Source: an archaeon (GTDB lineage Archaea > Nanobdellota > Nanobdellia > Pacearchaeales > DTIR01). From it: a stretch of DNA of 64,000 bases. This document shows positions 19,089-40,365 of the stretch, in pieces; positions within the stretch are counted from its first letter, which is position 1, and every line of letters begins with the position of its first letter. Where the stretch lies: contig JAZDFA010000012.1 of NCBI GenBank assembly GCA_043808285.1, forward strand, positions 67,680-131,679, read 5' to 3'. Both the position numbers and the translations under genes were made by a program. The notes below the pieces were generated by a model. The model was not told the DNA's origin. It ran no database searches and saw only the letters and a list, made by a program, of their open reading frames with translations.

Positions 19089-22000
19089 ATGAATAACAAA
19101 AAAACGGCAAAAGAAAAGCCAGTATTACAGGCGTTCTTCTTAATGGCTAACATGATTATTTCGATATTTGCATTTTCTTTTTTGATTGCTGCTGTATCAG
19201 TTATATCAACACCTGTTGCTGCTGCAGCTACATCAACTGAATGCTGCGAGAAGGTAAAGGACAAGGATTTATTCTGCCAGAATACATTATCAACAAGCTG
19301 CGATACAAAATTTGCTCATGCTCCAACTTCATGCGACTCAACTTCATTTTGCAGATTAGGGTGCTGTTATGACGGCAAGGAAGGAACTTGCGCTGAAAGC
19401 ACCCCAAGAAAGGTTTGTGATTTAAGGGGTGGGACATGGGATTTGAGCGCAAGCTGCAATATCGCACAATGCCAAAAGGGGTGCTGTGTTCTTGGAGACC
19501 AGGCATCATTGACAACATTAGTAAGATGCAAGAAATTGGCAAGCTTTTATGGTTTAGAGACAGATTACCGGTCTGCTATTGTTTCTGAGCAGGCATGCGT
19601 TGATATTGCACAAGCAGAGGATAAAGGAGCATGCGTTATCACTGCAGGCGGAGTTGAAACAACTTGCAAGCTAACAACAAGAGTAGAATGCAAGAGCATG
19701 ACACACAATGAAACTGCTTTCAATAAAGGATTTTTATGTTCGGCAGAGAAGTTAGGAACACCTTGCACAAGACAGGCATCCACAGGATGCATTGAAGGAA
19801 AGGACGAGGTTTATTGGTTTGATTCCTGCGGGAATACTGAAAATATTTATGATGCTAACAAGGACAGGAGCTGGAACAATGGAAAGATATTAGACAAGGA
19901 AAAGTCATGCGATCCTATACAAGATAATGCAAAGGATGCAAATTGCGGCAATTGCGATTATTATATGGGAAGCATGTGCGGAAAGGCAAGGACAGGAGTT
20001 GAGCCAAGACCTGCTGAGGGGGATTACATTTGCAGGGATTTGAATTGTTATAATACTTACAATGGAAAAGATTACAAGCACGGAGAATCATGGTGTGTTT
20101 TTGATGGTGCTGTAGGATTAGGCAGAGATGCACCAGGCAGCAGGCATTGGAGACATCTTTGTGTGATGGGTGAGGAGAAAGTAGAGCCTTGTGATGATTA
20201 CAGGCAGGGGATTTGTGTTCAGGATAGTGTGGATATAGAAGGTCAGGGCAAATACACAGAGGCAATGTGCAGGGCAAATGGCTGGAAGATGTGCTTTGAT
20301 TATAATTCTAAATCTAATGCAGAAAAACAATGCAATGATAATAATGACTGCATGTGGATGCAAGCATGGAAATTAAAATTATGCGTGCCAAATTTCCCTC
20401 CAGGATTTAATATAAAGGCTGGAGGAGACCTTGCAGGTGGAGCAACTACTTTCTGTAGCATGGGTTCTTCATCATGTTCTGTAGCTTATCAGAAAACTTT
20501 AACGAAAGGTTGGCAGTGTGTTGGCAATTGCGAATGCAAGGAACAAGCATGGGTAAATACTATGGACAAATTGTGCACTTCTATGGGAGATTGTGGTGGA
20601 AAAGCTAATATTGCTGGAGCTTATACTAAAGATGGATATGAAATAAGCGGAACAGAGAATGTTCCAGATAAAAATGTAAGCAACAAAGATGATGGTTTTG
20701 GAGGTTTTGGTGGTTTATTGATGTCTGGGGGGATAGCTATAGGTGCTATTTGGATATTTAATAACATGAAGCTTATAACTACTTCTCAAGCTACTGCATT
20801 AAAAGCAGCTGAAGTTATTGGAGGCAAGACTGCTAGGATGACTAGCCTCAAAGGGGCGGAAGCAGGATATTCCCCAGGTAAGGGATTAACATTAAATCAG
20901 TGGTTGAGTATTAATGCTAAACAGGGAACCGGGTTTGCCAATATAGCTGTAAATGTCGCAGGAGCATATATGGTTTCTATGCTTGTTAATGGATTATTTG
21001 GTTTGAAAGGAGAAGCCGCAAACATGGTAACAATGGCAGGTGTAACTACTTCATTAGCAACTTCAGTTTATGGAAATATGATGGCCTCAAAAGTAGCTGC
21101 AGGAACTGCGCAGCCTTTCTTAGGTCTGGGTGGGGGAGCTTGGTTTGCCCCTCTTATTTGGGCTGCAGTAGTAATGTTAGTAGTAGCTTTAATTATGAAA
21201 ATGATGAAGATAGGTGCGACAAGAACGGAGAAAGTAACATTCACATGTTTGCCATGGCAGCCTCCAGTTGGCGGGGCTGATTGCCAGAAATGCAATAAGG
21301 AACCAATTGGTGGGGAGATGAAGCCATGCACTAAATATAGATGTGATAGTCTTGGGCAGGGTTGTTCATTATTAAATGAAGGTACTGGAAAAGAGACTTG
21401 CACTTGGATTAATAAGGATGACAGCACTGCGCCGGTAATAAAACCATTAAAGTCTGTGCTTACAAAAGACCATTCTTACAAAGAAATTAAGCCTTGCCCG
21501 CCAGGACCTGGTTGCTTCAAGATAGAAAAAGAGGGTTCTAAAGACGGCTGCATAAAATCATTTACCCCATTGCAATTTGGAATAGAAGCTAATGAGCCTG
21601 CACAATGCAAGCTAGACACAAATCACACTGGGAAGTTTGATGACATGCAGTTTTATTTTGGTGATAATCTTTACTTATATAATCATACTATGATGATGAG
21701 CCTGCCTTCACCTGCTTCTATAAATGCGTTAAGCAATGAAACAACAAGCCCCACATTAAAGAATGATGGGAAATATACAATGTATATAAGATGCAGGGAC
21801 GGAAATGGGAATTGGAACTTGGGGGAAATGGCAATGCAGTTCTGCGTTGACCCTGGCCCAGACACGACACCTCCAATGATAATGAGAACAAGCATAGAGA
21901 ACGGAGCACCAATAAGTTACAATGCAAAGAATGTTCCTTTGGATGTTTATCTGAATGAGCCATCAGCGTGCAAATGGAGCAGAACAGATCAGGATTATAA

Positions 22001-22784
22001 CAATATGAATAATACATTTATATGTGCTTCAAGTGTTGAGCAGATAGAAGGAGACATGACTTACAAGTGCAGCACAATATTAAGCAGCGTTAATGATAAG
22101 GTAACAAATACCTTCTATTTCAGATGCAAAGACCAACCATGGCTTGCAGGAGTTAATGAGAGTGACAGGAATATTAACAAAGAGAGTTATGTTTTCAAGC
22201 TTGAAGGCACTATTCCATTGAATATCACTAAGGTAGAACCAAATGGAACAGTTAAAGGAGGAGCAGAGCCAATCTCTGTGAAATTAACTGCAGAGACTGC
22301 AAATGGATATTCAAGCGGGGATGCAAAATGTTCTTTTGCAACAAATGGTTATGATGGGGCGATGGTAGAATTTTTTGATACTGGTAGTTACAAACATGAA
22401 CAGACTCTTGATTTGTATGCTGGAGACTACACTTTCTATGTGATGTGTAGAGATGATGCAGGAAATACTGACCAGAATATGACTAAATTCAAAGTAGAAT
22501 TGGATAAAACACCTCCCATAGCTGTAAGAGCTTATCAGGATGGGGGAATGCTAAAGATAGTAACTGATGAAGATTCAGAATGCAAGTATGGAATAAAGGA
22601 CTGCAACTTTGACTTTTTATCTGCTACAGACATGCCATTTGAAAATTCAACAGAGCATACTGCAGAATGGAGAACAGACATAACTTATTATATCAAGTGC
22701 AAAGACCAATATGGGAATATGCCAGTACCCTCTGCTTGTTCGATACAAGTAGATGCATATGATATACAGACGAATAGTGAGTAA
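19089..22784 (+). CDS. giant Cys-rich membrane protein, copy 2 (paralog of 14427..18191)
   Basis: 1231 aa. Collinear with copy 1 in both ectodomain parts (CCEKVKDKDLFCQN.., FTCLPWQPPVGGADCQKCN.., four C-terminal modules). The central hydrophobic region is unrelated in sequence. Confidence 0.6.
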   Translation: MNNKKTAKEKPVLQAFFLMANMIISIFAFSFLIAAVSVISTPVAAAATSTECCEKVKDKDLFCQNTLSTSCDTKFAHAPTSCDSTSFCRLGCCYDGKEGTCAESTPRKVCDLRGGTWDLSASCNIAQCQKGCCVLGDQASLTTLVRCKKLASFYGLETDYRSAIVSEQACVDIAQAEDKGACVITAGGVETTCKLTTRVECKSMTHNETAFNKGFLCSAEKLGTPCTRQASTGCIEGKDEVYWFDSCGNTENIYDANKDRSWNNGKILDKEKSCDPIQDNAKDANCGNCDYYMGSMCGKARTGVEPRPAEGDYICRDLNCYNTYNGKDYKHGESWCVFDGAVGLGRDAPGSRHWRHLCVMGEEKVEPCDDYRQGICVQDSVDIEGQGKYTEAMCRANGWKMCFDYNSKSNAEKQCNDNNDCMWMQAWKLKLCVPNFPPGFNIKAGGDLAGGATTFCSMGSSSCSVAYQKTLTKGWQCVGNCECKEQAWVNTMDKLCTSMGDCGGKANIAGAYTKDGYEISGTENVPDKNVSNKDDGFGGFGGLLMSGGIAIGAIWIFNNMKLITTSQATALKAAEVIGGKTARMTSLKGAEAGYSPGKGLTLNQWLSINAKQGTGFANIAVNVAGAYMVSMLVNGLFGLKGEAANMVTMAGVTTSLATSVYGNMMASKVAAGTAQPFLGLGGGAWFAPLIWAAVVMLVVALIMKMMKIGATRTEKVTFTCLPWQPPVGGADCQKCNKEPIGGEMKPCTKYRCDSLGQGCSLLNEGTGKETCTWINKDDSTAPVIKPLKSVLTKDHSYKEIKPCPPGPGCFKIEKEGSKDGCIKSFTPLQFGIEANEPAQCKLDTNHTGKFDDMQFYFGDNLYLYNHTMMMSLPSPASINALSNETTSPTLKNDGKYTMYIRCRDGNGNWNLGEMAMQFCVDPGPDTTPPMIMRTSIENGAPISYNAKNVPLDVYLNEPSACKWSRTDQDYNNMNNTFICASSVEQIEGDMTYKCSTILSSVNDKVTNTFYFRCKDQPWLAGVNESDRNINKESYVFKLEGTIPLNITKVEPNGTVKGGAEPISVKLTAETANGYSSGDAKCSFATNGYDGAMVEFFDTGSYKHEQTLDLYAGDYTFYVMCRDDAGNTDQNMTKFKVELDKTPPIAVRAYQDGGMLKIVTDEDSECKYGIKDCNFDFLSATDMPFENSTEHTAEWRTDITYYIKCKDQYGNMPVPSACSIQVDAYDIQTNSE

Positions 22785-24264: not shown

Positions 24265-24929
24265 TTTGTTATGTTTTTACTTGATTTTATTAGTTCCTTT
24301 ATATCTTTATTAGCAAGAGAGTATATAAATTTCTTGTCTTTTTTGGAGATATTGATTCTTCTGTCGATATCATGAAGATTATGCAGATAAAAACCAAATT
24401 TTTTTAAGAGGTATGCTCTGCCTATCAAAGTTATCATTTTGGTTCTGCTTTCTAGTAACCCCATTCTTTCTTGTCTCTTGTAAGATTTTTCTAGATTATA
24501 CAATTCCGCTTTTATGTAGTCATTCAACTTCATACATTCATTTTTGCAGTCTTCCCCATTCATTATTAAGACATTTTGAGGGTCAATATAGCTATTATAT
24601 TTCCATAGAAGATAGTCTGATTTATTACTCTCATTAATATAAGCAACATCTAACCAAAATGAAACATCTTTTTTTATTTCGCAAGAATCATGAATTATAA
24701 AATTATCTCTTGGGTTATTTAATATTGAGATTAGCTGATTGCCTTCCAGGTCATATACTTCTTTTCTTTCTGTTTTATTCGGGAAATAATCAAGAATGAG
24801 AGTGAATTCTAAATCTGAAAGTCTATCTCGTATTACTGTGTTATTGATTATCTTTGCTTTTGGATAGCATGATTGAAATAATCTAAACACATACCCCTGT
24901 TCTTGATTAAGTCTTTTTGTTTTTTCCAT
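24255..24929 (-). CDS. hypothetical protein (224 aa) in radical SAM operon
   Basis: ORF overlaps upstream radical SAM 3' end by 82 nt and downstream MBL gene by 10 nt. No recognisable motif. Confidence 0.4.
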   Translation of the reverse strand: MEKTKRLNQEQGYVFRLFQSCYPKAKIINNTVIRDRLSDLEFTLILDYFPNKTERKEVYDLEGNQLISILNNPRDNFIIHDSCEIKKDVSFWLDVAYINESNKSDYLLWKYNSYIDPQNVLIMNGEDCKNECMKLNDYIKAELYNLEKSYKRQERMGLLESRTKMITLIGRAYLLKKFGFYLHNLHDIDRRINISKKDKKFIYSLANKDIKELIKSSKNITKWK

Positions 24930-25966
24930 ATCTTCGTCCAGTTTATTTTTGATATATTCCCAATAGGATTCTTTTCATAAGGGCATTTATATATCTCTCC
25001 AAAAATATCTATATAACTGCTGCTAAAACCCGCAGAACAATATTTTTTTATTGTACTCAATTCACCTATTATCACTTTTTTATTGCTTTCTTTTTTTAGT
25101 CTCTTTAGAATAGCTGTTGTCTTGTTAATCTCTGGCAGAATTTTGTAAAGGCCCCTTTTGTAAGGTACTACTAATGAAAATTTAATCATTGAGATATTAT
25201 CCAACTTCTCAAGTTCTTTTAGGATATCACTCAATTCTGCATAATTAGAATTATATTTTGTGACGACCACATTTATTTTAAGAGGGATTAAAAGTTCATC
25301 AAAAAATTTTATGTTGTCTAATATCTCTTTTTTTGAATAGCATATGCCTAATTTTCTAAGAGTACTCTTTTTTAATGAATGAACTGAAAGTTGTATTATC
25401 CTAATATGTTTCTTTATTTTCTTTAATCTGCTTTTTATATCATTATGTCAGAAATGCTTTTGCGAAAACCACATGCTTTAGCATGTGGATGAGCATTTCT
25501 GATCATCCTAAAGTTGCACGCAAACCACACCCTTTAGGGTGTGGTAAAACTCAGCAACTTTTTGATTTAGAAACCCGTTAGTATTTATTTCTATTGAGAT
25601 ATTCTTTTTTGAAGCTAATTCTATGAAATCATCAAATCTAGGATTTAGTAATGGTTCTCCCCCAGTTATGATTATTTCAAGTGTAGAACTTGTTAATTTA
25701 TTTAGAATATTCTTAAAACTTGATAAAGACAAATTTCTAGTTATATTATTATTCCGGTTATAACAAAACACACAGTGAAGATTACATTTGTTTGTTATCT
25801 CTAAGAACACCCTAATGGGTCCATCAGCTTCTTTTCTTTTTCTAAAAGAAACGAAATTTGATTTCAGAAAACTAATTACATCTCTTTCTTTGAATTCTTT
25901 TAAGTCTTCTATCCTAAAGATTTGACCGTTGCGAGAAATTAGAAAGTATATCTCTCTATTGTTCAT
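24848..25966 (-). pseudogene. radical SAM enzyme with twitch/SPASM-like C-terminus, interrupted by a ~123-nt hairpin repeat
   Basis: N-half (ORF 25508..25984): CNLHCVFC, GGEPLL, EINTNGFL. C-half (open from 25447 to 24848): DIKSRLKKIKKHIRIIQLSVHSL..CSAGFSSSYIDIFGEIYKCPY. Both halves share one codon phase. The only three in-frame stops (25510-08, 25480-78, 25450-48) lie inside repeat R4. Likely start is MNNREIY at 25966. Confidence 0.7.
25443..25566 (+). repeat. modular hairpin repeat locus R4, inserted inside radical SAM coding sequence
   Basis: TTATGTCAGAAATGC..ACCACATGC-TTT-AGCATGTGG..GCATTTCTGATCATCCTAA-AGTTGCACGCAAACCACACCC-TTTA-GGGTGTGGTAAAACTCAGCAACTTTTTGAT. Confidence 0.85.
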
Positions 25967-25967
25967 C

Positions 25968-26096
25968 TTAGTCCCATGCATCACTGGAAGGCATCATTAG
26001 ACATCCTTCATCTGTTCTTCTGTGTTTGATGATCTGTTCTAAGAATACTTTCGTATTTTCTTTATCTTGTCTTTTCTGTTGATTTCTTTTTTTCAT
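25968..26096 (-). CDS. unannotated small ORF (42 aa), candidate precursor peptide for the adjacent radical SAM enzyme
   Basis: MKKRNQQKRQDKENTKVFLEQIIKHRRTDEGCLMMPSSDAWD. Stop TAA is one nt before the MNNREIY start of the radical SAM gene. AAAGATTTAAATAAAT promoter-like box about 30 nt upstream. Confidence 0.4.
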   Translation of the reverse strand: MKKRNQQKRQDKENTKVFLEQIIKHRRTDEGCLMMPSSDAWD

Positions 26097-27586: not shown

Positions 27587-27656
27587 TAATTTAGGTCTAT
27601 CCTCTTCCTTTTATTTCTTTCTAAACCATTTTTGCAAACCCTTACATTTGCATTTT

Positions 27657-28164
27657 TTATGTCAAGAACACTTGACAAAAACCACATACCATACTTTAGT
27701 ATGCGGTAGCGTGTTCCTGAGCACAAGAAAATCTTGTTTGATTTTCTTATGCCGGAAATTCCTAAGGAAGAATTTCCTTGCATCCTAACAGGGGGAATCT
27801 TTTGATGTCAGAAATGTGGTTCAAACCGCACCCCGCAAAAAGCTTTGCTTTTCGGGGCATAGAAAACCGCTAGAGGTTTTCTCTGCTTTAGGGTGCATTT
27901 CTGATCATCCTAACCTCGAAAACCTTTTGGTTTTCGGGGCCCTGAAAATCCAGTAGGATTTTCTTGGAATTCCAAGCAAACCGCACCTCCGCGAAAACAT
28001 CTTGTTTTCGGGGCATAGGAAATTAGTAAATTTCCTCTGTTTAAGGTGCGGTAAAACTCAAGGAATTTTTTGATTCCCAATGTCCCGAAAAGCTAAGCTT
28101 TTCGCGAAGTTGCACGCAAACTTCCACCTTTTAAGGTGGAAGTAACACACAGCAACTTTTTGAT
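27657..28164 (+). repeat. modular hairpin repeat locus R5, largest composite array (508 nt)
   Basis: At least four full modules plus eight simple GAAAANC/GNTTTTC hairpins. Ends with CAGCAACTTTTTGAT. Track ORFs here (27576..27788, 27586..27783) are translations of the repeat. Confidence 0.9.
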
Positions 28165-28185
28165 CTTTTTGTTGTCACCATAAAG

Positions 28186-28195
28186 TTTATAAAAA
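28186..28195 (+). promoter_or_regulatory. TATA box for small ORF / radical SAM operon 2
   Basis: TTTATAAAAA centred 25 nt upstream of the ATG at 28215 (leaderless spacing). Confidence 0.45.
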
Positions 28196-28214
28196 ATGAT
28201 TCATAATCAAAACT

Positions 28215-28328
28215 ATGGAATCCAAAAAAGCAGATAATAAAAATGTCTTATCTGTAGCTAAGAAGGCATTATCTGAAAAAGATGTTTTAATGTCTTATTC
28301 AGAGGCATATGGCGGAGAAAGCTCATAA
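28215..28328 (+). CDS. unannotated small ORF (37 aa), candidate precursor peptide
   Basis: MESKKADNKNVLSVAKKALSEKDVLMSYSEAYGGESS. Ends 19 nt before the ATG at 28348, which is preceded by GGGG. Below the track cutoff. Confidence 0.4.
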   Translation: MESKKADNKNVLSVAKKALSEKDVLMSYSEAYGGESS

Positions 28329-28347
28329 TTTTAAGATAGGGGTTATT

Positions 28348-29448
28348 ATGAACTTAACCGCAGTAGTAGAAGTTACTGAAAATTGTAATCTTGAATGTAC
28401 ATTTTGCCTTAGAAATTCATTTAAGAGCGAGATAATGACCCTCAAAACCCTTGAAAAGATAATTTCTCATGTCCTTAATTTCAGCACAGATAGAGTAGAT
28501 TTTATATGGCATGGAGGAGAGCCTCTAATTGCTGGAATTGATTTTTTTAAGAGAGTAAAAGAACTGCAGAATAAATATAACAAAAATAACTTGAAGATTG
28601 TCAATAATGTTCAAACAAATGCAATTCTTTTGAATGAGGATTTTATCAAATTTTTTGAGAAAGAGGGATTTATTATAGGAACGAGCATACAAGGAACAAA
28701 AAGAATACACGATTCTTCAAGAGTGGATAATTTAGGGAATCCAACTTTTGAGAGAGTAATAAAGAATATATCAAAATTGAAGAAGAAACCCTCTGCAATA
28801 ATTGTTCTGACCAAACAGATATTAGGCAAGGAAAAACCAATCTACAAAGAGATGAAAAAATATACTTCAGGATTCAGAATTTCAGAGTACTTCCCAAAAA
28901 ATAAACTAGATCTCACATCTAAGGATACTAAATTAATGCCTACACCTAGAGAATATGCGAAATCCATGATGAGGTTTTATAACTTATGGAAAAAAGATAA
29001 AAATCCTATTGAGATAAGGCCAATTACAGAGTTTATCCGAGGGATGATAAAGGGTCAATGTGGAGGATGCCTCTACTCTCAGAAAGCATGTAATTTTTCA
29101 GTAATAGGTGTGGATCATAAAGGAGATTTCTATACTTGTATGAGGAGTTTTGGGAATAAGAGATATTTCTTTGGGAATGTATCAGACAGACCCTTAAGCA
29201 AACGAACAAAAATATCAAAAAATAATATGTCTGAAAGATTATACCCTCTAAAAAACAAAGAATGCAAAGATTGCAGATTTTGGAATCAGTGCAATGGCGG
29301 ATGCCCCCAAGAATCTTTATCGCTATATGGAGATATAATTCATAAGGCATTTTATTGTAATGGAAGAAAAATACTTTTTGAAGAGATAGAAAAAGATTTA
29401 GGAGGAAAAGATGGAATTTCTAGAATACTGCAAACGCAAAAATCCTGA
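28348..29448 (+). CDS. radical SAM/SPASM-domain enzyme (anaerobic sulfatase maturase-like family)
   Basis: ORF 28309..29448; start preferred at MNLTAVVEV (28348). CNLECTFC; GGEPL; SPASM Cys pattern CGGCLYSQKAC..DFYTC..CKDCRFWNQCNGGCPQE..YC. Confidence 0.8.
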   Translation: MNLTAVVEVTENCNLECTFCLRNSFKSEIMTLKTLEKIISHVLNFSTDRVDFIWHGGEPLIAGIDFFKRVKELQNKYNKNNLKIVNNVQTNAILLNEDFIKFFEKEGFIIGTSIQGTKRIHDSSRVDNLGNPTFERVIKNISKLKKKPSAIIVLTKQILGKEKPIYKEMKKYTSGFRISEYFPKNKLDLTSKDTKLMPTPREYAKSMMRFYNLWKKDKNPIEIRPITEFIRGMIKGQCGGCLYSQKACNFSVIGVDHKGDFYTCMRSFGNKRYFFGNVSDRPLSKRTKISKNNMSERLYPLKNKECKDCRFWNQCNGGCPQESLSLYGDIIHKAFYCNGRKILFEEIEKDLGGKDGISRILQTQKS

Positions 29449-30801: not shown

Positions 30802-32127
30802 TTAAGGAGTCAGTCTATCCCTATCTCTTGGGAAAAGGCAAGCCTCTCTTATGTTATCAAGCTCGAGTAAAGCCATGGTGAATCTTTCAAGCCCGATTGA
30901 CCATCCGGAGTGGATGGGAGCACCGTATCTAAAAGAATCAACATAAGACTTGAAATTATCTGGGTTAAGGCCTTTCATCTTTAGCTGCTCTATTAATAAT
31001 TCTGGAAGATGCACTCGCTGACCACCAGAAGAAATTTCTATTCCCCCATAAAGCGCATCAAACCCTTTCGATATCATTTCATCTTCATCAAGAGTCTTTG
31101 GCATTATGTAGAAAGGCTTTACTTTTCTTGACCAATCATGAACTAATAAAACAGTATTTGGGAATAGCTCGCAAAGTTTTCTTTCTCCTTCAGGAGAGAT
31201 ATCATCATCAATTTCAACTCCATTTTTCTTTAGCAAATCAACCGTTTCCTGGAAAGTAAGATATTTTTCAGCAGGCACTTCAACTTCAACTTTTAATAAT
31301 TCCAGTTCTTTCTTGCAATTCTCTTTAACTTTTTTTACCATATGCTGGACAACACTAGTGATATACTTCATAACGCCAAATTCATCTTCAAAGGCAACTT
31401 CAATATCCATCTGTCTTGATTCATTTAGATGCCTTATTGTATTATGTTTTTCAGCTCTCCAAACAGGAGTAATGCAGAATACTTTCTCAAAAGAACATGC
31501 AGCCATCTGCTTGTATAATTGAGGTGACTGAGCAAGATAAGCATTTTTTTCAAAATATTTTACTGGAAATAATTCTGTTCCGCCTTCAGAAGCACTTGAG
31601 ATTATTGAAGGGGGTTGAATCTGCATAAATCCATTTGATTTAAAAAATTCCTGGAAAGAATATGATATTTCAGATTGAATCTTGAATATTGCTTGAGTCC
31701 TTGCACTGTGAAAGTCCACTGCACGATTATCCAGTCTCTTAGGCAATTCTGTCTTGGAATAATCAGTAACATCAATAGGAAGCATTAATTCAGACTTTCC
31801 AATAATCTTTATGCTGTCTGGAAGTATCTCTCTCCCACCAGGAGCTTGCTTGCTTTCTTTTACTTTTCCTACTACCTCAACTGAGGATTCATGCGGAATT
31901 TTTGAGAATAAATCAAATACTTCTGGGGGTGTTTCACTCTTAACACCAGTTACTTGTATTACTCCTGAAATATCCCTTAATACCATAAATTTTACTTTGC
32001 TTAGGTCTCTTATTTCTTTTACCCATCCTTTTAGGACTATTTCTTTGCCAAAATCTGCAGGGGTAATGTCTTTTATGAGCACTCTTTTAGCTTCTTTGTC
32101 AACCATAATTTTTACACTAGATAGCAA
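30802..32127 (-). CDS. aspS: aspartyl-tRNA synthetase (archaeal type)
   Basis: 441 aa. OB-fold N-domain (KFMVLRDISGVIQV). Class II motifs FRAE-like WRAEKHNT, GGIEISSGGQR, GWSIGLERF. Alternative start at M8. Confidence 0.9.
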   Translation of the reverse strand: MLSSVKIMVDKEAKRVLIKDITPADFGKEIVLKGWVKEIRDLSKVKFMVLRDISGVIQVTGVKSETPPEVFDLFSKIPHESSVEVVGKVKESKQAPGGREILPDSIKIIGKSELMLPIDVTDYSKTELPKRLDNRAVDFHSARTQAIFKIQSEISYSFQEFFKSNGFMQIQPPSIISSASEGGTELFPVKYFEKNAYLAQSPQLYKQMAACSFEKVFCITPVWRAEKHNTIRHLNESRQMDIEVAFEDEFGVMKYITSVVQHMVKKVKENCKKELELLKVEVEVPAEKYLTFQETVDLLKKNGVEIDDDISPEGERKLCELFPNTVLLVHDWSRKVKPFYIMPKTLDEDEMISKGFDALYGGIEISSGGQRVHLPELLIEQLKMKGLNPDNFKSYVDSFRYGAPIHSGWSIGLERFTMALLELDNIREACLFPRDRDRLTP

Positions 32128-32182
32128 TATATAAATCTTGTCTATTCATAAATTATTTAAACATCTTTTAGTTTAGCAATGC

Positions 32183-32722
32183 ATGAAAAGAGGGTTTTTA
32201 TCTTTAAAAAAGGCTGAAACAATGGGTATGCCTTTCCAGATGATTTTTTCATTGTTCTTAATTGCAGTATTCTTTGTTGTTGCTTTCTTTTCAATAATGA
32301 ACTTCCTGAGCGTGCAGAATTGCGCCCAAGTGGGATTGTTTCAAAGAGAATTACAGGAAAAGATAGATTCAATATGGAACGCCCAGTCAGCAGAAAATGT
32401 ATTCGAGGGAAAACTTCCAGGCTCAGTTGAATATGTATGCTTTCTAAATTTCACAAGACCCAAAACATTAACAGGATTGGATAGTGAAGGAAGGGATATT
32501 GCAAACAAGGTATATAATGATTTAAGCGTCTTTTACAAGTTTAAGAAGGCGAATCTTTTCCTATATCCTACAAAGGGTGCTTGCGATATGTCTTACAAGC
32601 TTCTTAAGCACATCGATGCAAGCAGTACTTCAAATCCTTATTGCATAAAGAATACCGGAAAGATAAGCATAAGCTTATACAAGGGATTTGATGATGTTTA
32701 TGTAAAAGTAAGGCAGCAGTAA
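32183..32722 (+). CDS. type IV pilin-like protein (class III signal peptide)
   Basis: MKRGFLSLKKA|ETMGMPFQMIFSLFLIAVFFVVAFF. Basic residues, Ala, then a hydrophobic helix. Confidence 0.5.
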   Translation: MKRGFLSLKKAETMGMPFQMIFSLFLIAVFFVVAFFSIMNFLSVQNCAQVGLFQRELQEKIDSIWNAQSAENVFEGKLPGSVEYVCFLNFTRPKTLTGLDSEGRDIANKVYNDLSVFYKFKKANLFLYPTKGACDMSYKLLKHIDASSTSNPYCIKNTGKISISLYKGFDDVYVKVRQQ

Positions 32723-32728
32723 AATCAT

Positions 32729-32868
32729 AAAAACCTCTGTTTTACTGGGGGTTTTCACGAAAAGCAAAGCTTTTCGAGTCCCCGAAAAACAAGAAGGTTT
32801 TTCTTGGTTAGGATGCAAGGAAATTCGAAAGAATTTCCGGCACAGAAAATCCTAGAGGATTTTCTTGT
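32729..32868 (-). repeat. modular hairpin repeat locus R6 (reverse, lacks the TGTCA terminal block)
   Basis: CGAAAAGC/GCTTTTCG, GAAAAAC/GTTTTTC, GGTTAGGATGC (reverse complement of GCATCCTAACC), GGAAATTC/GAATTTCC, AGAAAATCC/GGATTTTCT. Confidence 0.8.
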
Positions 32869-32885
32869 GATTCAAAATTAAAAAA

Positions 32886-33884
32886 ATGAACTTCAAAAAA
32901 AAAGATTTAAAATTTATGGACATTGGAAGAAAGAAAGCACAAATGCAGTTTAATTGGATTTTTTCTATTGTAGTGGGGGCAGTTATAATCTTTCTTGCAT
33001 TATTTTTTGCAAGTCGTTCTATTAACATGCAGCAATACAAGTATGATTCAGAGATAGCTGAAAAACTTTCAGTGCTGCTTGATCCTTTGGAGAGTGGCAT
33101 GGGGAGTGCATCAATTGATGTGATAAAAATGCCTGCAGACACAAGAATAAGCATGAAATGCAAATATGAGGGAATAGGCAGGCAGGAGCTAAGAATTGCC
33201 ACAAAGAATAGTGTTGGAAGTGAGTGGCAGGAATTTGGGGCTATACAGAGCATATACAACAAGTATGTATTTTCAAGAGACTTGGAAGAAGGCAAAGAGC
33301 TTTACATCTTTTCAAAGCAGTTTAAGATGCCATTTGATGTTGCAAATTTGATATACCTAACGGCAGGAAATTATTGTTTCATTTCTCCTCCAGACAGCCT
33401 CTCTTATGAGCTAAAGGACTTGAACGCAACCAATATGAAGGTTACTAATAGGAAGCAGGATTGCAAGAAGGGGAGCATAAGTGTGTGCTTCAATAACCCT
33501 TCATGCGATGTAGTTGTTAATGGATTATGCTATGGATACGGCTGCAATAGTCTATATGATTACGGGTATGTGCAGCAGGGAAATGAAAAGTCTTATTTCT
33601 TGGGAGATGCATTGCTTTATGGTGCGATATTTTCAAAGCCAGATTTTTACAATTGCACTGTGAAGAGGCTATTGAACCGGATAAGCATGCTTTCGAAGCT
33701 TTATGCAGAGAAGACAAAGCTTTTAGATTCAAGAGGGTGTATGACTGGAGAACTCTCAAAAAAACTGATAGATTTAAGCTATGAGGCATCAGGCTTGATA
33801 GCATTATCAAATATAATGCCGTTAAATGATAAATCAATTGAGGTGGAATATGAGAATGAGGCACTTATATGCAGGGCGTGGTAA
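32886..33884 (+). CDS. type IV pilin-like protein (class III signal peptide), 332 aa
   Basis: GRKKA|QMQFNWIFSIVVGAVIIFLALFFA. Confidence 0.5.
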   Translation: MNFKKKDLKFMDIGRKKAQMQFNWIFSIVVGAVIIFLALFFASRSINMQQYKYDSEIAEKLSVLLDPLESGMGSASIDVIKMPADTRISMKCKYEGIGRQELRIATKNSVGSEWQEFGAIQSIYNKYVFSRDLEEGKELYIFSKQFKMPFDVANLIYLTAGNYCFISPPDSLSYELKDLNATNMKVTNRKQDCKKGSISVCFNNPSCDVVVNGLCYGYGCNSLYDYGYVQQGNEKSYFLGDALLYGAIFSKPDFYNCTVKRLLNRISMLSKLYAEKTKLLDSRGCMTGELSKKLIDLSYEASGLIALSNIMPLNDKSIEVEYENEALICRAW

Positions 33885-34338
33885 GGCCCAATTAAAGATA
33901 CAGGAAACAGCTTTTATGCTGCTAGGTCTAGCAATGCTTTTTGCATTAATACTGATAATCTATGCAAATATGCAGGTTAAGCAATTATATTCTGAAAAGA
34001 ATCAACTGAAGGCAGAGAGAGCGATTAATTTGCTGGGCAAACTAGCGGCAATGCCTGAGCTGTCTTGTATAATCGGGAATTGCATAGATATGGATAAGGC
34101 ATTAGCAATCAGGAATGTTTCAGGCTATGAGAATCTTTGGAAGGGGTTAAGTTCAATAAAGATAGTTACAATATACCCCAACCAGTCAAGCATTACAATA
34201 TATGACAAAGGAAAGAAAGACATAACATATTCATCTTACGTCCCATTATGCAGGACTGCATACAAAGACGGATATGTATGGCAGGACTGTGATGTTGCAA
34301 AGCTGTTAGTTTCAGTTGAAGAGGTGAAACCAAAATGA
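33850..34338 (+). CDS. type IV pilin-like protein (class III signal peptide)
   Basis: ORF 33826..34338, start moved to MRMRHLYAGRGKA|QLKIQETAFMLLGLAMLFALILII. GAGGTGG lies 4 nt upstream of the ATG at 33850. Confidence 0.5.
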   Translation: MRMRHLYAGRGKAQLKIQETAFMLLGLAMLFALILIIYANMQVKQLYSEKNQLKAERAINLLGKLAAMPELSCIIGNCIDMDKALAIRNVSGYENLWKGLSSIKIVTIYPNQSSITIYDKGKKDITYSSYVPLCRTAYKDGYVWQDCDVAKLLVSVEEVKPK

Positions 34339-34856
34339 AAATGACGAGAAAAGCCCAGGAAGAGATATTGGGGTTTGTACTTATAATCTTAGTAGTAGGA
34401 ATAATCTCATTGGTTTTCTTAGGGTTAGCACTTCAAAAACCCCCCAAAACAAACCAGGACAAGCAGGTTGAAAATTTAGTTAATTCAATGCTTGCTTATA
34501 CAACTAATTGTGCATTGTATGTGCCGCAGTATGAAACAGTCTCGGATTTGATAAAGAGCTGTTATGCAAAGGACTATTGCAGTGATGGCAGAGATACATG
34601 CACAGAGTTAAAGAGCGTAATGGCCAGCATGATACAGACTTCAATAGGCAGCTTGACTGTTGACAGGCCTGTAAAGTCTTATGAGTTTAATATAAGCTAT
34701 TCAGAAAAACAGAGTGGCGGGATGACTTCAAGAAAACCAGACGCTTCAATACTATATTTAAGGAATGGAGTATCTAGCGGGACAAGCATAGGCTCTCAGC
34801 AGTTTTTGCCATTAGATGAAGGAAATATAGCAATCAGCCTAAAGCTTTGGTATTAG
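34335..34856 (+). CDS. type IV pilin-like protein (class III signal peptide)
   Basis: MKMTRKA|QEEILGFVLIILVVGIISLVFLGLAL. ATGA overlap with the upstream gene. Confidence 0.5.
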   Translation: MKMTRKAQEEILGFVLIILVVGIISLVFLGLALQKPPKTNQDKQVENLVNSMLAYTTNCALYVPQYETVSDLIKSCYAKDYCSDGRDTCTELKSVMASMIQTSIGSLTVDRPVKSYEFNISYSEKQSGGMTSRKPDASILYLRNGVSSGTSIGSQQFLPLDEGNIAISLKLWY

Positions 34857-35228
34857 CTATTGAAGGTGGAGAGTAAGCTGGATTTTATCAAGATTTATTA
34901 TTGGTTTGAGCTTTTGTTTTTTTCCTTTTAATTCTGGAACAAGCCTTACAAGACCAAAATTTCTTAAAAGTTCAACATCTTTTCTTACTGACTTAAAGTC
35001 TCTACCCAGCATTTTTGCAAGAGAATAAATAGAACTGGGGTTATTGTTTTTCAGAGTAAATAGCATTCTTGCCTTTTCATTGCTAAGAAGTTGCCTTAGA
35101 GCCATTATATCTGTGAAGTCCAAGCCAGCATAGCTTTTCCCATCTGCCTTAAACCTTCTAAACAATGCACTAAATGCTCCATGCTTCAATCTTATATCTA
35201 TGAAACCAATTCTTTCTTTTTCTACCAT
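34857..35228 (-). CDS. winged-helix DNA-binding protein (ArsR/MarR-like)
   Basis: 123 aa. SIYSLAKMLGRDFKSVRKDVELLRNFGLVRL is a typical HTH-wing segment. Confidence 0.5.
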   Translation of the reverse strand: MVEKERIGFIDIRLKHGAFSALFRRFKADGKSYAGLDFTDIMALRQLLSNEKARMLFTLKNNNPSSIYSLAKMLGRDFKSVRKDVELLRNFGLVRLVPELKGKKQKLKPIINLDKIQLTLHLQ

Positions 35229-35243
35229 GTTTTTATCAAAAAA

Positions 35244-35259
35244 ACAACATTCATGTTGT
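35244..35259. promoter_or_regulatory. perfect 16-bp palindrome, candidate operator
   Basis: ACAACATTCATGTTGT, 16 nt upstream of the wHTH gene start codon (35228). Confidence 0.3.
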
Positions 35260-35278
35260 AGTAACTATAGTTTTTTTA

Positions 35279-35324
35279 GGATCCTAAAGTTGCCGTTTGT
35301 ATTATGTCACTCAGCAACTTTATT
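35279..35324 (+). repeat. modular hairpin repeat locus R7 (single short module)
   Basis: GGATCCTAAAGTTGC-CGTTTGTATTATGTCACT-CAGCAACTTTATTAT. Confidence 0.6.
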
Positions 35325-35638
35325 ATCGTCGCTATATTTTCATATTACCTAAAACAAATAGTATATTTAAACATTATTGTTTTAAGATATATGTTTGTGT
35401 TTACCGTATATTAGGAAGAATAACAGGGGTTTTTCTTACCCTATATCTAGCTTAAAACAAAAGCTTTTTAAAGCGCCAGAAACTATAGGAAATGTGCTTA
35501 AGGTATTACTTAGGCATACACTGGCCAGAAAACGGTGTTCTTAAAATAGGGACTACAGCGATAACCATCTTGGTTGATAGGGTAACTTCCCTATTGTTGC
35601 TCTAAAAACTAAGACAAAGCCAAAATACAACTAATGAA

Positions 35639-35645
35639 AGGAGGT
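35639..35645 (+). promoter_or_regulatory. Shine-Dalgarno-like site for S-layer gene
   Basis: AGGAGGT ending 14 nt before the ATG at 35660. Confidence 0.5.
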
Positions 35646-35659
35646 TAGTGAAATAATAA

Positions 35660-38314
35660 ATGAAATTTAACTTTAAAAAGGTAGCGTCAGTATTAGCCAG
35701 CGCAGCAATGCTTGGTTCCACAATCGGAATGGCAGCTGCAGCTTCTATGTACCCAGACCCTTTCATAAAGGGAGGTGTTGCCAATGTAGCAATAGTTGTA
35801 GGCGCAAGCGCCGCAACAATTGATAACATAGCAGCAGTTGATGTTGGTGCAAATTTGCAGGCAGAGCTTGCAAAACAAACTGCAACAACTAGTTCAATCG
35901 GTGCAACAGGAGTTGGCGGTGATTCTGTCAACCTTGCTTCTACAAGCCAAAGGCTTTTCTACGGTAGCGCAATGAATGTTGCAAGAACTGGTATTTCTAA
36001 ATCAGAAATGCCTACTCTTTTAGCAGACGGCACTATAGTAGATGATGCAGGAACAGAATACAGCTTCACGCAAACCATAACACCAGGAAACAACACTGTG
36101 GCTTACTCCACAAGCGGAGGCGACTTGGAAGACCCAGCACTTCTAGTGCAGGTCGGAACAGTAGCAGATGCTTACTTGTATCAATTGGATCTTTCTTTCA
36201 ACAAGAATATCAATATATCAAGCTCTGACGTACAGGGCAACAATATAAAGATACTTGGAAAGGACTTTACAATTGGCTCTGGCTCAAACTCTGGAACACC
36301 TGTATTGTACTTGTATGGTGCAGGAACAGAGAAGACAGTCAGTGAAGGCGAGACAGCAAACCTCGAAGTAGGTGGAAAGACCTATGCATTAGAGGTTAAG
36401 AGCGTCGAGCAAACAGGAGGAGTGAATTACGTGTCTGTATCAGTAGATGGTGGTAGTATAAGAAGAATTACCGAAGGTAGCTCTTCAAAAGTTGGCGACA
36501 TAGAGATATATGCCAAGTCGATACATTACCTAGCAAAAGAGGCTCAAACTTCTTATGCAGATTTAAACATTGGTAGTACCAAGATTAAATTCGCGCAAGG
36601 TACAACTGTAAAGTCTGGAACAGATGAAACATCTATCCAAGGCACTAAGGCATACTTAACGTCAACAGGTGCTAACGGCTTATCCAAGTTATCTATAAAG
36701 GTAGCTATGGCAAAGTCCGCATCAGACCATCTTGGTATCGGAACTACGTTTGAAGACCCAATTTTCGGAGGACTTCAAGTGAAATTTGCAGATGTCGCTC
36801 CAGCATTGGATTCCGACATGAGAGATTCTGTAGTTATCAACACTGATAACAACAGAAATGCAAAGACAACTTTTACACCTTACTTGGGATCAAGCGAGGG
36901 AGCAAAGACTGTCTATTTTGGTTACGACCAAGACACTTCTGAAAGCACAATTACCACAAGACTCGCAGATTCTTCCAACAAAACCCTCAATGTACTTGAA
37001 GGTGCACTTGTTGGCGATGCTGAGTATATGGTTGTTAACGCAGGAGACTACGGTAGGATATTGAAAGTAACTGAACTACCAACAGGAGATTTAGAAACAA
37101 CTTCTAAGATCCAGTTGGAAGATGCTCTTACAGGAAAGACCCTCTTTGATGGAGGCGGATTGACTGTAGGAACAGATGGTAATGCCAGCACAAACATTGA
37201 TGGCAACACCTATTACTTCAGCGTCGTAAATAGTACGACATCTTACTTGAAGATCACCTGGGGTACGAATGCAGCTGAAGGAGTCGCTGGTACTCAAACA
37301 ACTTTATTCCCGAGAATAAAGTTGGCTAAAGGAGGATGGTTAGCATTCTTGAAACCTACAACTATTACCTACGGATTAACCTACTCTCTGCCAGGTCTAG
37401 AAACCTTAGCAGATTACGAGGCAGGTTTAACAATATCCGCTCAGACAGGTGCAGTTAGTAACGAATCAGGAAGCAAGAAATACGGAAATGTCAATTACTC
37501 AATTATATCAGGAGCAACAAATAACTTGACTGGTATAATTGGAGGAATAGACGTTAACGGAAATGATGCCCAAACTCTTATAGCAGGAACAGACTGTATC
37601 TTCAACTCTACTTCAGCAAATGGAGCAGCAGTTCTCTTCTTAGAAGAGAAGAAGATAACAGAAACCAACAATGCAAATAACGGCGACGCAATCTGTGTCA
37701 ACTTAGACGTGAGCGGAAGCACAACACCTGTAGAGGTGAGCGTTTCCACACCTGTAATGACAGGTACAAACTCCGCCTTGCAATCTCTTACAACTGACTC
37801 AAATGTCAGAGAGGCGGTTACAAGATACGGTACTTTCGTCGAATATGACTCAACAGATAACGATGCGATTACTATCAAATACCCAGATGAGCAGATGTAT
37901 GCAGACATACTCGTGACTCAGACAGGTGTAGAAGTAGCCGCTGGAGGATCGGGAGGAAGCGTAGCTTCACTTGGTTCTATTGCTGTTATGGATTCCGAAA
38001 TTGCTACTGTCAGTTCTAAGAACTTGATAGTACTTGGAGGAAGTTGTATAAACACAGTTGCTGCTAAAATGCTAGGAAGTGATTCAGCCATTTGTGGTGC
38101 AGACTTTACAACCGCGGCAGGCATTAGCTCAGGCCAATTCCTTATCAAGGTATTGGACTCCCCTTACACAACGGGTAAGGTAGCTATGTTAGTCGCAGGT
38201 TATGAAGGAGCAGACACAAGAAAAGCTGCAACTTACTTAGTAAGCATGAAGCCATCAACTATAGTTGGTACCGACCTTAAGAAGCAAACAGCAACCTACG
38301 AAGACGTAGTGTAA
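35660..38314 (+). CDS. S-layer protein
   Basis: 884 aa. Signal peptide, then YPDPFIKGGVANVAIVVGASAATIDNIAAVDV. C-terminal NLIVLGGSCINTVAAKML..VAMLVAGYEGADTRKAATYL. Both ends match the archaeal S-layer domain pattern. Thr/Ser/Gly-rich, visibly higher GC than neighbours. Confidence 0.8.
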   Translation: MKFNFKKVASVLASAAMLGSTIGMAAAASMYPDPFIKGGVANVAIVVGASAATIDNIAAVDVGANLQAELAKQTATTSSIGATGVGGDSVNLASTSQRLFYGSAMNVARTGISKSEMPTLLADGTIVDDAGTEYSFTQTITPGNNTVAYSTSGGDLEDPALLVQVGTVADAYLYQLDLSFNKNINISSSDVQGNNIKILGKDFTIGSGSNSGTPVLYLYGAGTEKTVSEGETANLEVGGKTYALEVKSVEQTGGVNYVSVSVDGGSIRRITEGSSSKVGDIEIYAKSIHYLAKEAQTSYADLNIGSTKIKFAQGTTVKSGTDETSIQGTKAYLTSTGANGLSKLSIKVAMAKSASDHLGIGTTFEDPIFGGLQVKFADVAPALDSDMRDSVVINTDNNRNAKTTFTPYLGSSEGAKTVYFGYDQDTSESTITTRLADSSNKTLNVLEGALVGDAEYMVVNAGDYGRILKVTELPTGDLETTSKIQLEDALTGKTLFDGGGLTVGTDGNASTNIDGNTYYFSVVNSTTSYLKITWGTNAAEGVAGTQTTLFPRIKLAKGGWLAFLKPTTITYGLTYSLPGLETLADYEAGLTISAQTGAVSNESGSKKYGNVNYSIISGATNNLTGIIGGIDVNGNDAQTLIAGTDCIFNSTSANGAAVLFLEEKKITETNNANNGDAICVNLDVSGSTTPVEVSVSTPVMTGTNSALQSLTTDSNVREAVTRYGTFVEYDSTDNDAITIKYPDEQMYADILVTQTGVEVAAGGSGGSVASLGSIAVMDSEIATVSSKNLIVLGGSCINTVAAKMLGSDSAICGADFTTAAGISSGQFLIKVLDSPYTTGKVAMLVAGYEGADTRKAATYLVSMKPSTIVGTDLKKQTATYEDVV

Positions 38315-38320
38315 AGCTAG

Positions 38321-38356
38321 TTTTGTTTTGTTTTTTTCTTTTTTTCTTTTTTTTTA
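38321..38356 (+). terminator. oligo-T terminator region after S-layer gene
   Basis: TTTTGTTTTGTTTTTTTCTTTTTTTCTTTTTTTTT immediately after the stop. Archaeal termination typically uses T runs. Confidence 0.55.
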
Positions 38357-38373
38357 ATTGACTGCTGATAGGC

Positions 38374-38524
38374 ATCAAAAAATTCCTGGAGGTTTGCTTG
38401 GAATTTTAGGATGCTCAAGAACACAACCACACACTAAACAGAGAAAATCCTAACTGGATTTTCAATGTCCTAAAAATCAAGAGATTTTTTCGACTGTGTG
38501 GTTTTTGTCAAGTGTTCTTGACAT
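38374..38524 (-). repeat. modular hairpin repeat locus R8 (reverse)
   Basis: Reverse complement reads ATGTCAAGAACAC-TTGACAAAAACCACACAG-[two hairpins separated by CAT]-CTGTTTAGTGTGTGG-TTGTGTTCTTGAGCATCCTAA-AATTCCAAGCAAACC..AGGAATTTTTTGAT. Confidence 0.85.
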
Positions 38525-38544
38525 GCAAAACATTTTTTGGTAAC

Positions 38545-38553
38545 TTTTATAAA
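38545..38553 (+). promoter_or_regulatory. TATA box
   Basis: TTTTATAAA centred 26 nt upstream of the ATG at 38575. Confidence 0.45.
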
Positions 38554-38574
38554 CGGTTTTTTCTTAGTCTGGAA

Positions 38575-39174: not shown

Positions 39175-39175
39175 A

Positions 39176-39886: not shown

Positions 39887-40365
39887 GCAATAATCTCTTA
39901 ATCGCTGCGATTATTAGCATGCTGCCCATAGCAGAGGTAAGGGGGGGGATACCTTATGCCCTTTCAACAATAAACTTAACCATCACAAATATAATTCTTG
40001 TCTATTCTTTATGCGTTTTAGCAAATGCATTAGTGGCTATACCCATATGGATATTCATGGATTTATTTCATTCTAAACTTTGCAAGATAAAGATATACAA
40101 TAATCTATCAAAAAAGGTTATAGATAAGATAAGGATAAAAAGCCATAAATTAGAGCCTCAAATAAACAGATATGGATATATAGCATTAGCAGTATTTGTA
40201 GGAATCCCTCTTCCCATGACTGGAGCATGGACTGGCAGCATAGCGGCTTGGATTCTAGACTTAAATAGAAAGAAGAGTTTTATGGCGATATTCTTAGGAG
40301 TAGCAGCTGCAGGAATAATCATGACGCTATCTTTTCTTGGTCTTCTTAGACTTTTTAGATTTTAA
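39883..40365 (+). CDS. small multidrug-export-like membrane protein (COG2426/PF06695-like)
   Basis: 160 aa. LPIAEVRGGIPYAL and GIPLPMTGAWTGS motifs. Confidence 0.55.
   Translation: MSNNLLIAAIISMLPIAEVRGGIPYALSTINLTITNIILVYSLCVLANALVAIPIWIFMDLFHSKLCKIKIYNNLSKKVIDKIRIKSHKLEPQINRYGYIALAVFVGIPLPMTGAWTGSIAAWILDLNRKKSFMAIFLGVAAAGIIMTLSFLGLLRLFRF

Follow-up and report, generated by a model that had tools for sequence, protein, structure and literature searches.

What fills the 508-nt region at 27657-28164, and why do short hairpins of the same kinds recur in so many of the spacers around it? We have addressed this question across the window, meaning the whole 64-kb stretch of DNA that was analysed. 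Very probably the hairpins are mobile non-coding DNA, now or formerly. The fuller explanation that we favour on balance is that they are copies of a gene-less, non-autonomous element resembling the PATEs discussed below, probably moved as a single-stranded DNA hairpin by an enzyme acting in trans. That the movement follows a single-strand HUH route is quite possible, and we propose it more tentatively.

The hairpin family in the window

The window is AT-rich (G+C about 36%) and encodes the archaeal housekeeping proteins CDC48, an S-layer protein and MetRS, along with proteasome alpha, SBDS, the exosome subunits Rrp4/41/42, RpoK, enolase, S2, PCNA and a fused primase. Because the MetRS homologues carry the names Pacearchaeota, Nanoarchaeota and Nanobdellota, and the best of them is 73% identical, the host is a DPANN archaeon without a close sequenced relative.

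The original prediction placed hairpin blocks at 14 sites, and the described blocks are present at all 14. Together they account for 2,275 nt (3.55% of the window), in agreement with the first estimate of roughly 2.3 kb (3.5%). The further claim that the blocks fill most long spacers stands for 14 of the 19 intergenic gaps of at least 60 nt (gene calls in the window are ORF-based, and the gap count comes from a rough gene call). However, two of the sites involve coding sequence, 25443-25566 being contained in a split gene and 12147-12232 making up the 3' end of an ORF. The exact words TGTCAAGAACAC and GCAACTTTTTGAT (12-/13-mers) occur six times each, in spacers only, and their mismatch-tolerant counts of 17 and 14 were reached by no shuffle. 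Self-BLAST of the window returns the same sites, and a covariance model built from related units of other genomes matches only the listed sites, with nothing convincing elsewhere in the window. The direct-repeat spacing in the 508-nt region is irregular (82, 74 and 94 nt) and the copies are 62-79% identical, so that the family was rightly held not to be a CRISPR array.

The 508-nt region folds to -204 kcal/mol, compared with -125 +/- 5.6 for shuffles (z = -14.2), and the 124-nt unit at 25443-25566 gives a z-score of -8.15 against its shuffles. Such strong folding z-scores favour one obvious alternative, namely a structured RNA family (a cis terminator, an mRNA-stabilising 3' element or an independent small RNA) that is multicopy because it is useful. 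We consider this quite improbable, for reasons that begin here and continue with the strand data below. No ORF of at least 80 aa is present in 27587-28308, as had been predicted. The original failure to match the repeats to a named RNA family was also borne out, since Rfam returned nothing there at gathering or permissive thresholds; at the gathering threshold the whole window yielded two tRNAs only, and the best sub-threshold match in the 508-nt region had E = 0.6. The lack of an Rfam match argues against the structured RNA, as does a density of about one copy per 4.6 kb, which is untypical of an RNA gene family. C/D-box, K-turn, H/ACA, hammerhead, integron attC and bulge-helix-bulge candidates were rejected, because the perfect Watson-Crick stems and the motif order do not fit them.

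Anatomy of the element

Three recurrent block types, concatenated in variable order, had been distinguished in the original prediction. The blocks do exist, but all of them are parts of one element, and the variable order has to be given up: the blocks sit in fixed slots, and the order A-hinge-B-tail is polar in every genome examined. From 5' to 3', the element consists of hairpin A, whose foot GTCA(A)GAA forms the element start, a hinge (CATCCTAA), hairpin B and a tail (TTTTTGAT). Complete copies are 120-270 nt long and encode no protein.

Each hairpin has a lower and an upper stem, of which the upper is variable, with a conserved internal loop between them, TTGACAAAA in A and GCAAAC in B. 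In hairpin A, the lower stem, preceded by TTAT, reads G-TCAAGAACAC or G-TCAGAAATG and leads into the loop TTGACAAAA or TGGTTCAAA, the upper stem, the 3' arm and one further base before the hinge. The hinge, CATCC(T/A)AA, that is CATCCTAA(C), is a single-stranded linker between the two hairpins. Hairpin B has a variable lower stem, a 5' loop (A/G)CAAAC, the upper stem and a 3' loop TAAAACTCA. The tail takes the forms TTTT(T)GAT and TTTT(T/A)TGAT, the 3' end of the element being TTGAT or ATGAT. Optional mini-hairpins of the GAAA/TTTC type occupy fixed slots at the apices of A and B and on both sides of the hinge, where one pair lies between the A 3' arm and the hinge and another between the hinge and B. 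An apex pair, in A or in B, always ends CTCTG just 5' of the loop TTTA. Hairpin A stands at the 5' terminus, and hairpin B ends 6-7 nt short of the 3' end. The hinge CAT can pair with ATG of the 5' end and the hinge ATC with GAT of the 3' end, and the loop CTTGACAAAA is a near-complement of the 5' flank plus element start TTTATGTCAAG.

The family had been likened to bacterial REP/BIME mosaics or to nested MITEs. The likeness holds for nested modular hairpin repeats as such; the element is neither a REP nor a classical MITE, and its closest class is the PATEs. According to a REP/BIME-type explanation, these would be host-domesticated palindromes, kept by a single-copy RAYT and serving chromosome or transcript functions. 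The hairpins, their dense packing in spacers, the mosaic look and the lack of a transposase nearby would all suit this, and some copies persist at orthologous sites (about 92% DNA identity). REP units, however, are palindromes of 20-40 nt arranged as inverted doublets, whereas the present ones measure 120-270 nt and have a fixed, polar order of modules. Their stems have no GTAG/CGTC head beside them, their feet reading TCA(A)GAA or RGAAA (definition in PMC3733652), and there is no RAYT among the 58 window ORFs scanned. RAYTs have been described mainly in bacteria (PMC2817692). We therefore regard the REP/BIME explanation as distinctly unlikely, even though the family shares with REP/BIME/REPIN and RAYT systems (PMC2817692, PMC3116915, PMC3733652) the high-copy, spacer-filling palindromes of mosaic look, the compensatory upkeep of stems and the presumed single-gene HUH enzyme in trans. 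Differences from those systems are the polar two-hairpin build with hinge and tail, without inverted doublets, and the archaeal host.

One element nested in another

The region at 27657-28164 consists of two complete elements, one within a hairpin of the other; the nesting originally proposed is directly visible when the region is aligned with other copies. The 5' part of unit 1 (27661-27806, plus strand), with TTAT upstream (27657-27660), is collinear with 50204-50418 (reverse complement) and is matched by the covariance model at 27657-27750 (E = 7.5e-8). It contains the lower stem of hairpin A (TCAAGAACAC at 27662-27671, GTGTTCCTGA at 27711-27720), hairpins Hd (27721-27752) and Hc (27753-27780), the hinge CATCCTAAC (27781-27789), and the 5' arm and loop of hairpin He, ending TTTTGAT (27800-27806). 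Inside He lies unit 2, a complete 268-nt element (27807-28074, plus strand). Its hairpin A' (GTCAGAAATG ... CATTTCTGA) carries two apex mini-hairpins. Next come the hinge TCATCCTAAC (27905-27914) and two further mini-hairpins; hairpin B', with AATTCC/GGAATT as its lower stem, again bears two mini-hairpins at its apex, and the tail TTTTGAT occupies 28068-28074. The 3' part of unit 1 (28075-28164, plus strand; covariance model match 28087-28164, E = 0.008) then supplies the He 3' arm TCCCAATGT, hairpin Ha (28084-28106), hairpin B (AAGTTGC at 28107-28113 ... GCAACTT at 28152-28158) and the tail TTTGAT (28159-28164).

Cutting out 27807-28074 restores hairpin He (GGGGGAATC-TTTT-GATTCCC), and the remainder is collinear, module by module, with 50204-50418 and 40956-41093. 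Unit 2 follows directly on a TTTTGAT with the same sequence as its own 3' tail, both junctions reading TTTTGAT, and the nested insertion shows no duplication beyond what boundary rotation explains.

A copy that splits a gene

The simplest complete element (A, hinge, B, tail; 120 nt) occupies 25447-25566 on the plus strand, directly 3' of TTAT at 25443-25446, and is the best match of the covariance model (104.8 bits, E = 4e-19). It splits a minus-strand Radical SAM/SPASM gene (24848-25984), with Pfam Radical_SAM found in one ORF and SPASM in the other. The N-terminal ORF (25508-25984; 158 aa) carries the N-terminal part of the Radical_SAM domain and takes its last 19 codons from the element, and the SPASM domain lies in the C-terminal part (24848-25270 and upstream). 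Both halves share one minus-strand frame, and the three stop codons between them are all inside the element. Deletion of the 120 nt at 25447-25566 yields a single ORF of 332 aa. BLASTP homologue alignments cover 72-87% of this rejoined protein, which is collinear with intact homologues of 330-417 aa over the junction between NTNGFLN and NDIKS. The reconstructed empty site is ATCATTAT^TTAGAAAC, and therefore the TT of the upstream TTAT is host sequence; the insertion boundary is ambiguous only by the dinucleotide AT.

For the two reconstructed insertions, the targets are TTAT and TGAT and the target duplication is either 0 bp or a 2-bp AT, with longer duplications and TA excluded. These results bear on another alternative, in which the element would be a classical MITE, mobilised by a DDE transposase through cut-and-paste and flanked by a 2-bp AT target duplication. 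Such a duplication is allowed by both insertions; AT, however, is not known as a usual target duplication of DDE families, and a TA duplication is ruled out because it breaks the restored reading frame. The ends, moreover, are not inverted repeats, the first 20 nt matching the reverse complement of the last 20 at 7 of 20 positions. We consider the MITE very unlikely, even though an automated MITE census attributes 105 MITEs per Mb, not characterised, to a Woesearchaea genome (PMC11602168).

Relatives, covariation, gain and loss

Outside the window, the family is present in several Woesearchaeota and Nanoarchaeia MAGs. With a 21-nt pattern taken from hairpin A, the unit of two hairpins was recovered from one Woesearchaeota MAG (14 contigs) and one Nanoarchaeia MAG (4 contigs), with many near-identical dispersed copies in those MAGs. 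A hairpin A pattern matches 108 metagenome stretches, many of which are the A-hinge-B-tail unit with different, fully complementary stems. On other contigs, different architectures follow the same A stem. The lower stem of B exists in at least six versions (AAGTTGC, AATTCC, AAAACC, AAAATCC, AACACGAGCGC and AAAACAAG(T/G)GCC), and 14 of the 28 predicted pairs show compensatory double changes; the lower stem of A was fixed by the search pattern, and its constancy is by construction.

Both gain and loss can be followed between genomes. Window 30802-40365 is syntenic with a 582-kb contig over ten genes, whose order is conserved and whose products are 38-78% identical to their orthologues in amino-acid sequence. 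This contig carries the family at other places (L061, L069), but has no copy at the junctions that correspond to three element-bearing ones of the window, those of 32729-32868 and 38374-38524 among them. At the junction orthologous to 32729-32868 the gap in the relative is 1 nt. The empty sites are thus drawn from a distant relative (60%) and from the two internal reconstructions. The two closest metG relatives have no family copy in 32 kb. Between two genomes that are about 92% identical, one copy has been kept at an orthologous site, and its upper stem is decaying in one of them. Two orthologous loci at 90.8% identity (L026 and L041) are distinguished by a 50-nt indel corresponding exactly to two mini-hairpins. 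Two overlapping viral contigs were considered as possible carriers of the family and rejected, each having a lone A-like hairpin without hinge or hairpin B.

Could the hairpins instead be immobile products of slippage, duplication and gene conversion, acting locally on AT-rich spacers? The module indel between the orthologous loci L026 and L041 and the existence of chimeric copies would be expected from such processes. However, a polar 120-nt unit with constant ends recurs in different genomes and at unrelated loci, and also inside a gene, where local processes cannot place it. We consider local origin extremely unlikely. The argument for mobility rests on the gene-splitting copy together with the empty orthologous junctions in the syntenic relative; self-insertion, the dispersed near-identical copies, the maintained hairpins and the chimera at 63372-63485 (see below) also count for a mobile element.

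Strand and orientation

When 46 distinct units were folded on both strands, there was no sense-strand advantage, the antisense strand being slightly more stable, and the G-U counts over these units (59 vs 79) revealed no enrichment on the element sense strand. That both strands fold equally fits a palindrome at the DNA level rather than an RNA made from one strand. An apparent strand-specific RNA signal in the first alignment, an excess of G-U over A-C (13 vs 3), vanished with the 46 units.

Orientation relative to genes is biased. Between co-directional genes, 19 of 24 copies are antisense (p = 0.007), and 24 of 30 when the window sites are added (p = 0.0014); these counts take in related but flank-distinct copies. 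The structured RNA family introduced above is supported by the compensatory changes and conserved loops across genomes, and by the resemblance of a hairpin plus T5-T7 run to a terminator; the one clearly sense copy, inside the rpoK-eno operon, has a 4-T run only. Against it stand the prevalence of copies antisense to their co-directional neighbours, the lack of a better-folding strand or of sense-strand G-U enrichment, the copy that splits a gene and the copy nested in another, and the absence of the family from close relatives and from orthologous junctions. Returning to the mobile element, the preferred explanation of the bias is that sense copies inside operons have been removed, because a hairpin with a T5-T7 tail would terminate archaeal transcription; alternatively, the bias may reflect replication-linked insertion.

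Ends, target and proposed mechanism

The sequence immediately 5' of the element is strongly conserved over 51 distinct copies, with T at -1 in 51 of 51, A at -2 in 50, T at -3 in 41 and T at -4 in 37; further upstream it is T-rich only. ISDra2 uses the target TTGAT and IS608 uses TTAC. The present motif is looser than in characterised IS200/IS605 members, only AT being near-invariant. Part of it pairs with the hinge and could therefore belong to the element. For IS605-family transposons, a conserved terminal motif and insertion 3' of a pentanucleotide, TTTAT or TTCAT for example, are documented (PMC10055086).

In both reconstructed insertions the new copy, which has no terminal inverted repeats, entered directly 3' of T-(T/G)-A-T; copies afterwards lose modules by deletion between internal repeats. 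The landing sites are mostly spacers, sometimes another copy and in at least one case a gene. By the most likely mechanism, the element would travel as single-stranded hairpin DNA, to be cut and joined by a trans-acting HUH enzyme (an IS200/IS605 TnpA or a RAYT-like protein) that would be encoded elsewhere in the genome. An enzyme of this type had already been suggested as a possible mobiliser in the original prediction.

How does this proposal compare with IS608? In that element, about 19 nt separate the foot of the recognised hairpin from the left cleavage site. In the present family the foot of the 5' hairpin is at the very end of the element, not about 19 nt inside. The upper stem of hairpin A begins about 20 nt from the boundary, preceded by CAAAA, and its position would be compatible with the IS608 geometry if the upper stem were the recognised hairpin. 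The antisense bias is the reverse of what the IS608 rule, by which the top strand lies on the lagging-strand template, would predict, provided that genes are oriented with replication. An IS608-like pairing of guide and cleavage site, based on the loops CAAAA/CAAAC, is speculative, because the tail variants (TTTTGAT vs TTATGAT) do not covary with the loop.

The search for an enzyme bore out the original statement that the window contains no transposase: transposase domains were found in none of the 58 window ORFs scanned. Across about 1 Mb of element-bearing loci (130 related copies), there was no multi-copy ORF near the elements, and the 1,035 ORFs clustered from these loci included only housekeeping, TrmB and toxin-antitoxin families. 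A heuristic scan for a TnpB-type C-terminal motif found none in 1.1 Mb, and no autonomous copy (A ... ORF ... B) was seen. It is unlikely, though somewhat less so than the other alternatives, that the element is no simple derivative of a known IS but is mobilised, through recognition of its hairpins, by a system of DPANN archaea that has yet to be described. In one speculative version of this idea, T-T-A-T/TTGAT sites would be selected by the conserved internal loops, serving as guides within the element itself; in another, the element would encode a guide-RNA scaffold, similar to omega RNA or bridge RNA, that is used in trans by a nuclease or recombinase.

Comparison with PATEs and other repeats

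PATEs (palindrome-associated transposable elements) are non-coding derivatives of the IS200/IS605 type, known from Haloquadratum walsbyi (PMC3119063) and Geobacillus (PMC10055086). They are defined by the lack of inverted repeats, near-terminal palindromes, no target duplication and a length too short to code, with core deletions between repeats and nesting as further features (PMC3119063). They are the best-fitting described class for the present family, a closest match rather than a proven membership. The family resembles them in being non-coding, with palindromes by both ends and no terminal inverted repeats, and in its nesting, its core deletions between similar near-terminal palindromes and its heterogeneous copies. 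The target duplication of 0 or 2 bp may also agree with the class, as may the short oligonucleotides conserved at the 5' flank, where the motif is loose, and at the 3' terminus. Unlike PATEs, it has no related IS605-type transposon, tnpA or tnpB in the window or in the approximately 1 Mb of related loci, and its ends have no known similarity to any IS. Its hairpins, up to about ten in fixed slots, go far beyond a fused pair of ends, the foot of the 5' hairpin is at the terminus, and the host is a DPANN archaeon.

Several bacterial repeats offer looser parallels. Pneumococcal BOX has the structure boxA-boxB(n)-boxC and no defined insertion motif, and Correia/NEMIS and RUP are MITEs with terminal inverted repeats and target duplications. 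The present family shares with all of these its variable internal modules, strong predicted structure, location in spacers and at gene ends and lack of a protein, but is not known to have sequence similarity to any of them.

The literature that was searched contains no description of this family, and we regard it as a new family of an already known kind of element. What makes it notable is its density in a reduced genome, its elaborate fixed-slot hairpins and the missing mobilising enzyme. If our explanation holds, about 3.5% of 64 kb, and most of the longer spacers, are one selfish hairpin element in a small, tightly packed DPANN genome, where it has split a gene, invaded the conserved operon rpoK-enolase-S2 and rewritten gene ends. 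Genome reduction in DPANN archaea would then coexist with bursts of non-coding mobile DNA. With its clear ends, nested copies and presence in many metagenomes, the family offers a widespread test case for how gene-less archaeal hairpin elements move.

Other copies in the window

The full-length reference copy is the 214-nt element at 50204-50417 (minus strand; model E = 1e-8), which consists of A, Hd, Hc, hinge, He, Ha, short B and tail and has every hinge-side slot filled. Also complete is the 228-nt element at 1961-2188 (plus strand; E = 4e-12), with A, hinge, two mini-hairpins, a B with an apex mini-hairpin pair, and tail; it is antisense to the flanking genes and adjoins tRNA-Ala. At 38374-38524 (minus strand; E = 4e-9), A with an apex mini-hairpin pair is followed by the hinge and a reduced B (AATTCC/GGAATT). 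The element at 40958-41093 (plus strand) has a short A without upper stem, the hinge, He, Ha, short B and tail. The element between rpoK and enolase (54681-54846, plus strand) is in sense orientation, and its tail has a 4-T run only (GGTTTTCTTGAT). A short A recurs at 56130-56305 (minus strand), with Hd, Hc, hinge and three mini-hairpins; this copy, which lies antisense to the operon, starts at the stop codon of the enolase gene.

The remaining copies are truncated, degenerate or chimeric. The one at 32729-32868 (minus strand) is 5'-truncated and retains Hd, Hc, hinge, two mini-hairpins, a reduced B and the tail TTTTTATGAT, the tail lying outside the listed span at about 32724-32733. A degenerate 3' half at 4451-4545 (minus strand), with a Ha-like hairpin and a short B (AAGTTGT ... 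ACAACTT), was missed by the covariance model and has the core TAGCACTCA in common with the copies at 41059 and 50204. Fragments are found at 35279-35324 (plus strand; hinge and a short B of lower stem only) and at 57289-57379 (strand not assigned), an internal piece made of mini-hairpins only, of the He/Ha types, with a self-BLAST depth of 6. The plus-strand chimera at 63372-63485 joins the 5' half of A to the 3' half of B across the common segment CAAACCGCACC and is a repeat-mediated core deletion. For annotators, such spacers are better masked as repeats than mined for small RNAs, and caution is advisable with ORFs that run into them. The chimera at 12147-12232 (plus strand), composed of hairpin A, one apex mini-hairpin and the 3' arm of the other stem type, provides the last 30 or so codons of the ORF at 11687-12238.

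Elements within and beside genes

Two of the element sites in the window reach into coding sequence. The 120-nt element, which is the simplest complete copy, divides a radical SAM/SPASM gene into two ORFs (24848-25984, minus strand), and the final 19 codons of the N-terminal ORF consist of element-derived sequence. The split gene is probably either dead or expressed as two pieces. Another radical SAM gene is located 2.3 kb away, at 28309-29448. A second case is the element at 12147-12232, which provides the stop codon and the last ~30 codons of a 183-aa ORF without a Pfam match (11687-12238); the original C-terminus appears to have been replaced through element insertion.

Elements also flank the enolase gene on either side, within the conserved archaeal rpoK-eno-rpS2 cluster (54215-57198). 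One of these (54681-54846) is in the sense orientation and has a tail T run of only 4 T, and the other (56130-56305) is antisense and adjoins the enolase stop codon.

Complementarity of the hairpin A loop

The conserved loop of hairpin A, the 5' hairpin of the element, has the sequence CTTGACAAAAA and is near-perfectly complementary (10 of 11 positions) to TTTATGTCAAG, which spans the 5' flank and the beginning of the element, both at 27656-27681 and at the equivalent place in other copies. An alternative small hairpin that includes the flanking TTAT can therefore form. The complementarity could be a built-in guide to the target or cleavage site, or it could be a coincidence.

Related architectures

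Two further element architectures were found in GC-richer metagenome contigs (loci L026, L029, L035, L041, L045, L081 and others; L036, L044, L047, L051, L080, L083 and L125). Both begin with the same TGTCAAGAACAC hairpin, which is followed in one by GCATGC-TCAGAAATCGCC...GGCGATTTCTGA-CATGTCAA and in the other by a TCAAGAATT hairpin and ...CAGTTTGAAAT. This common start suggests a wider element superfamily based on TCA(A)GAA-footed hairpins. In addition, an isolated TGTCAAGAACAC...GTGTTCTTGA hairpin, accompanied by neither hinge nor hairpin B, is present on two overlapping viral contigs, IMGVR_UViG_3300032298_001311 and 3300033571_010163 (loci L133 and L134); this may be a chance occurrence or a virus-borne minimal relative of the element.

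Other features

Two very large neighbouring ORFs, at 14427-18191 (1,254 aa) and 19089-22784 (1,231 aa), have long near-identical stretches in common (for example, 14748-15572 versus 19380-20207) along with six shorter blocks. Weak matches to Ig-like domains occur in the second ORF. The pair probably represent surface proteins that arose by tandem duplication.

A single 427-aa ORF (10353-11636) contains the domains of both primase subunits, small and large, and is adjoined by a Cas4/PD-(D/E)XK nuclease-like ORF (9548-10372). Self-comparison across the whole window found no repeat-and-spacer array. In the closest relative by metG (locus L135), the eRF1 gene contains an intein with a LAGLIDADG domain (20083-21449).
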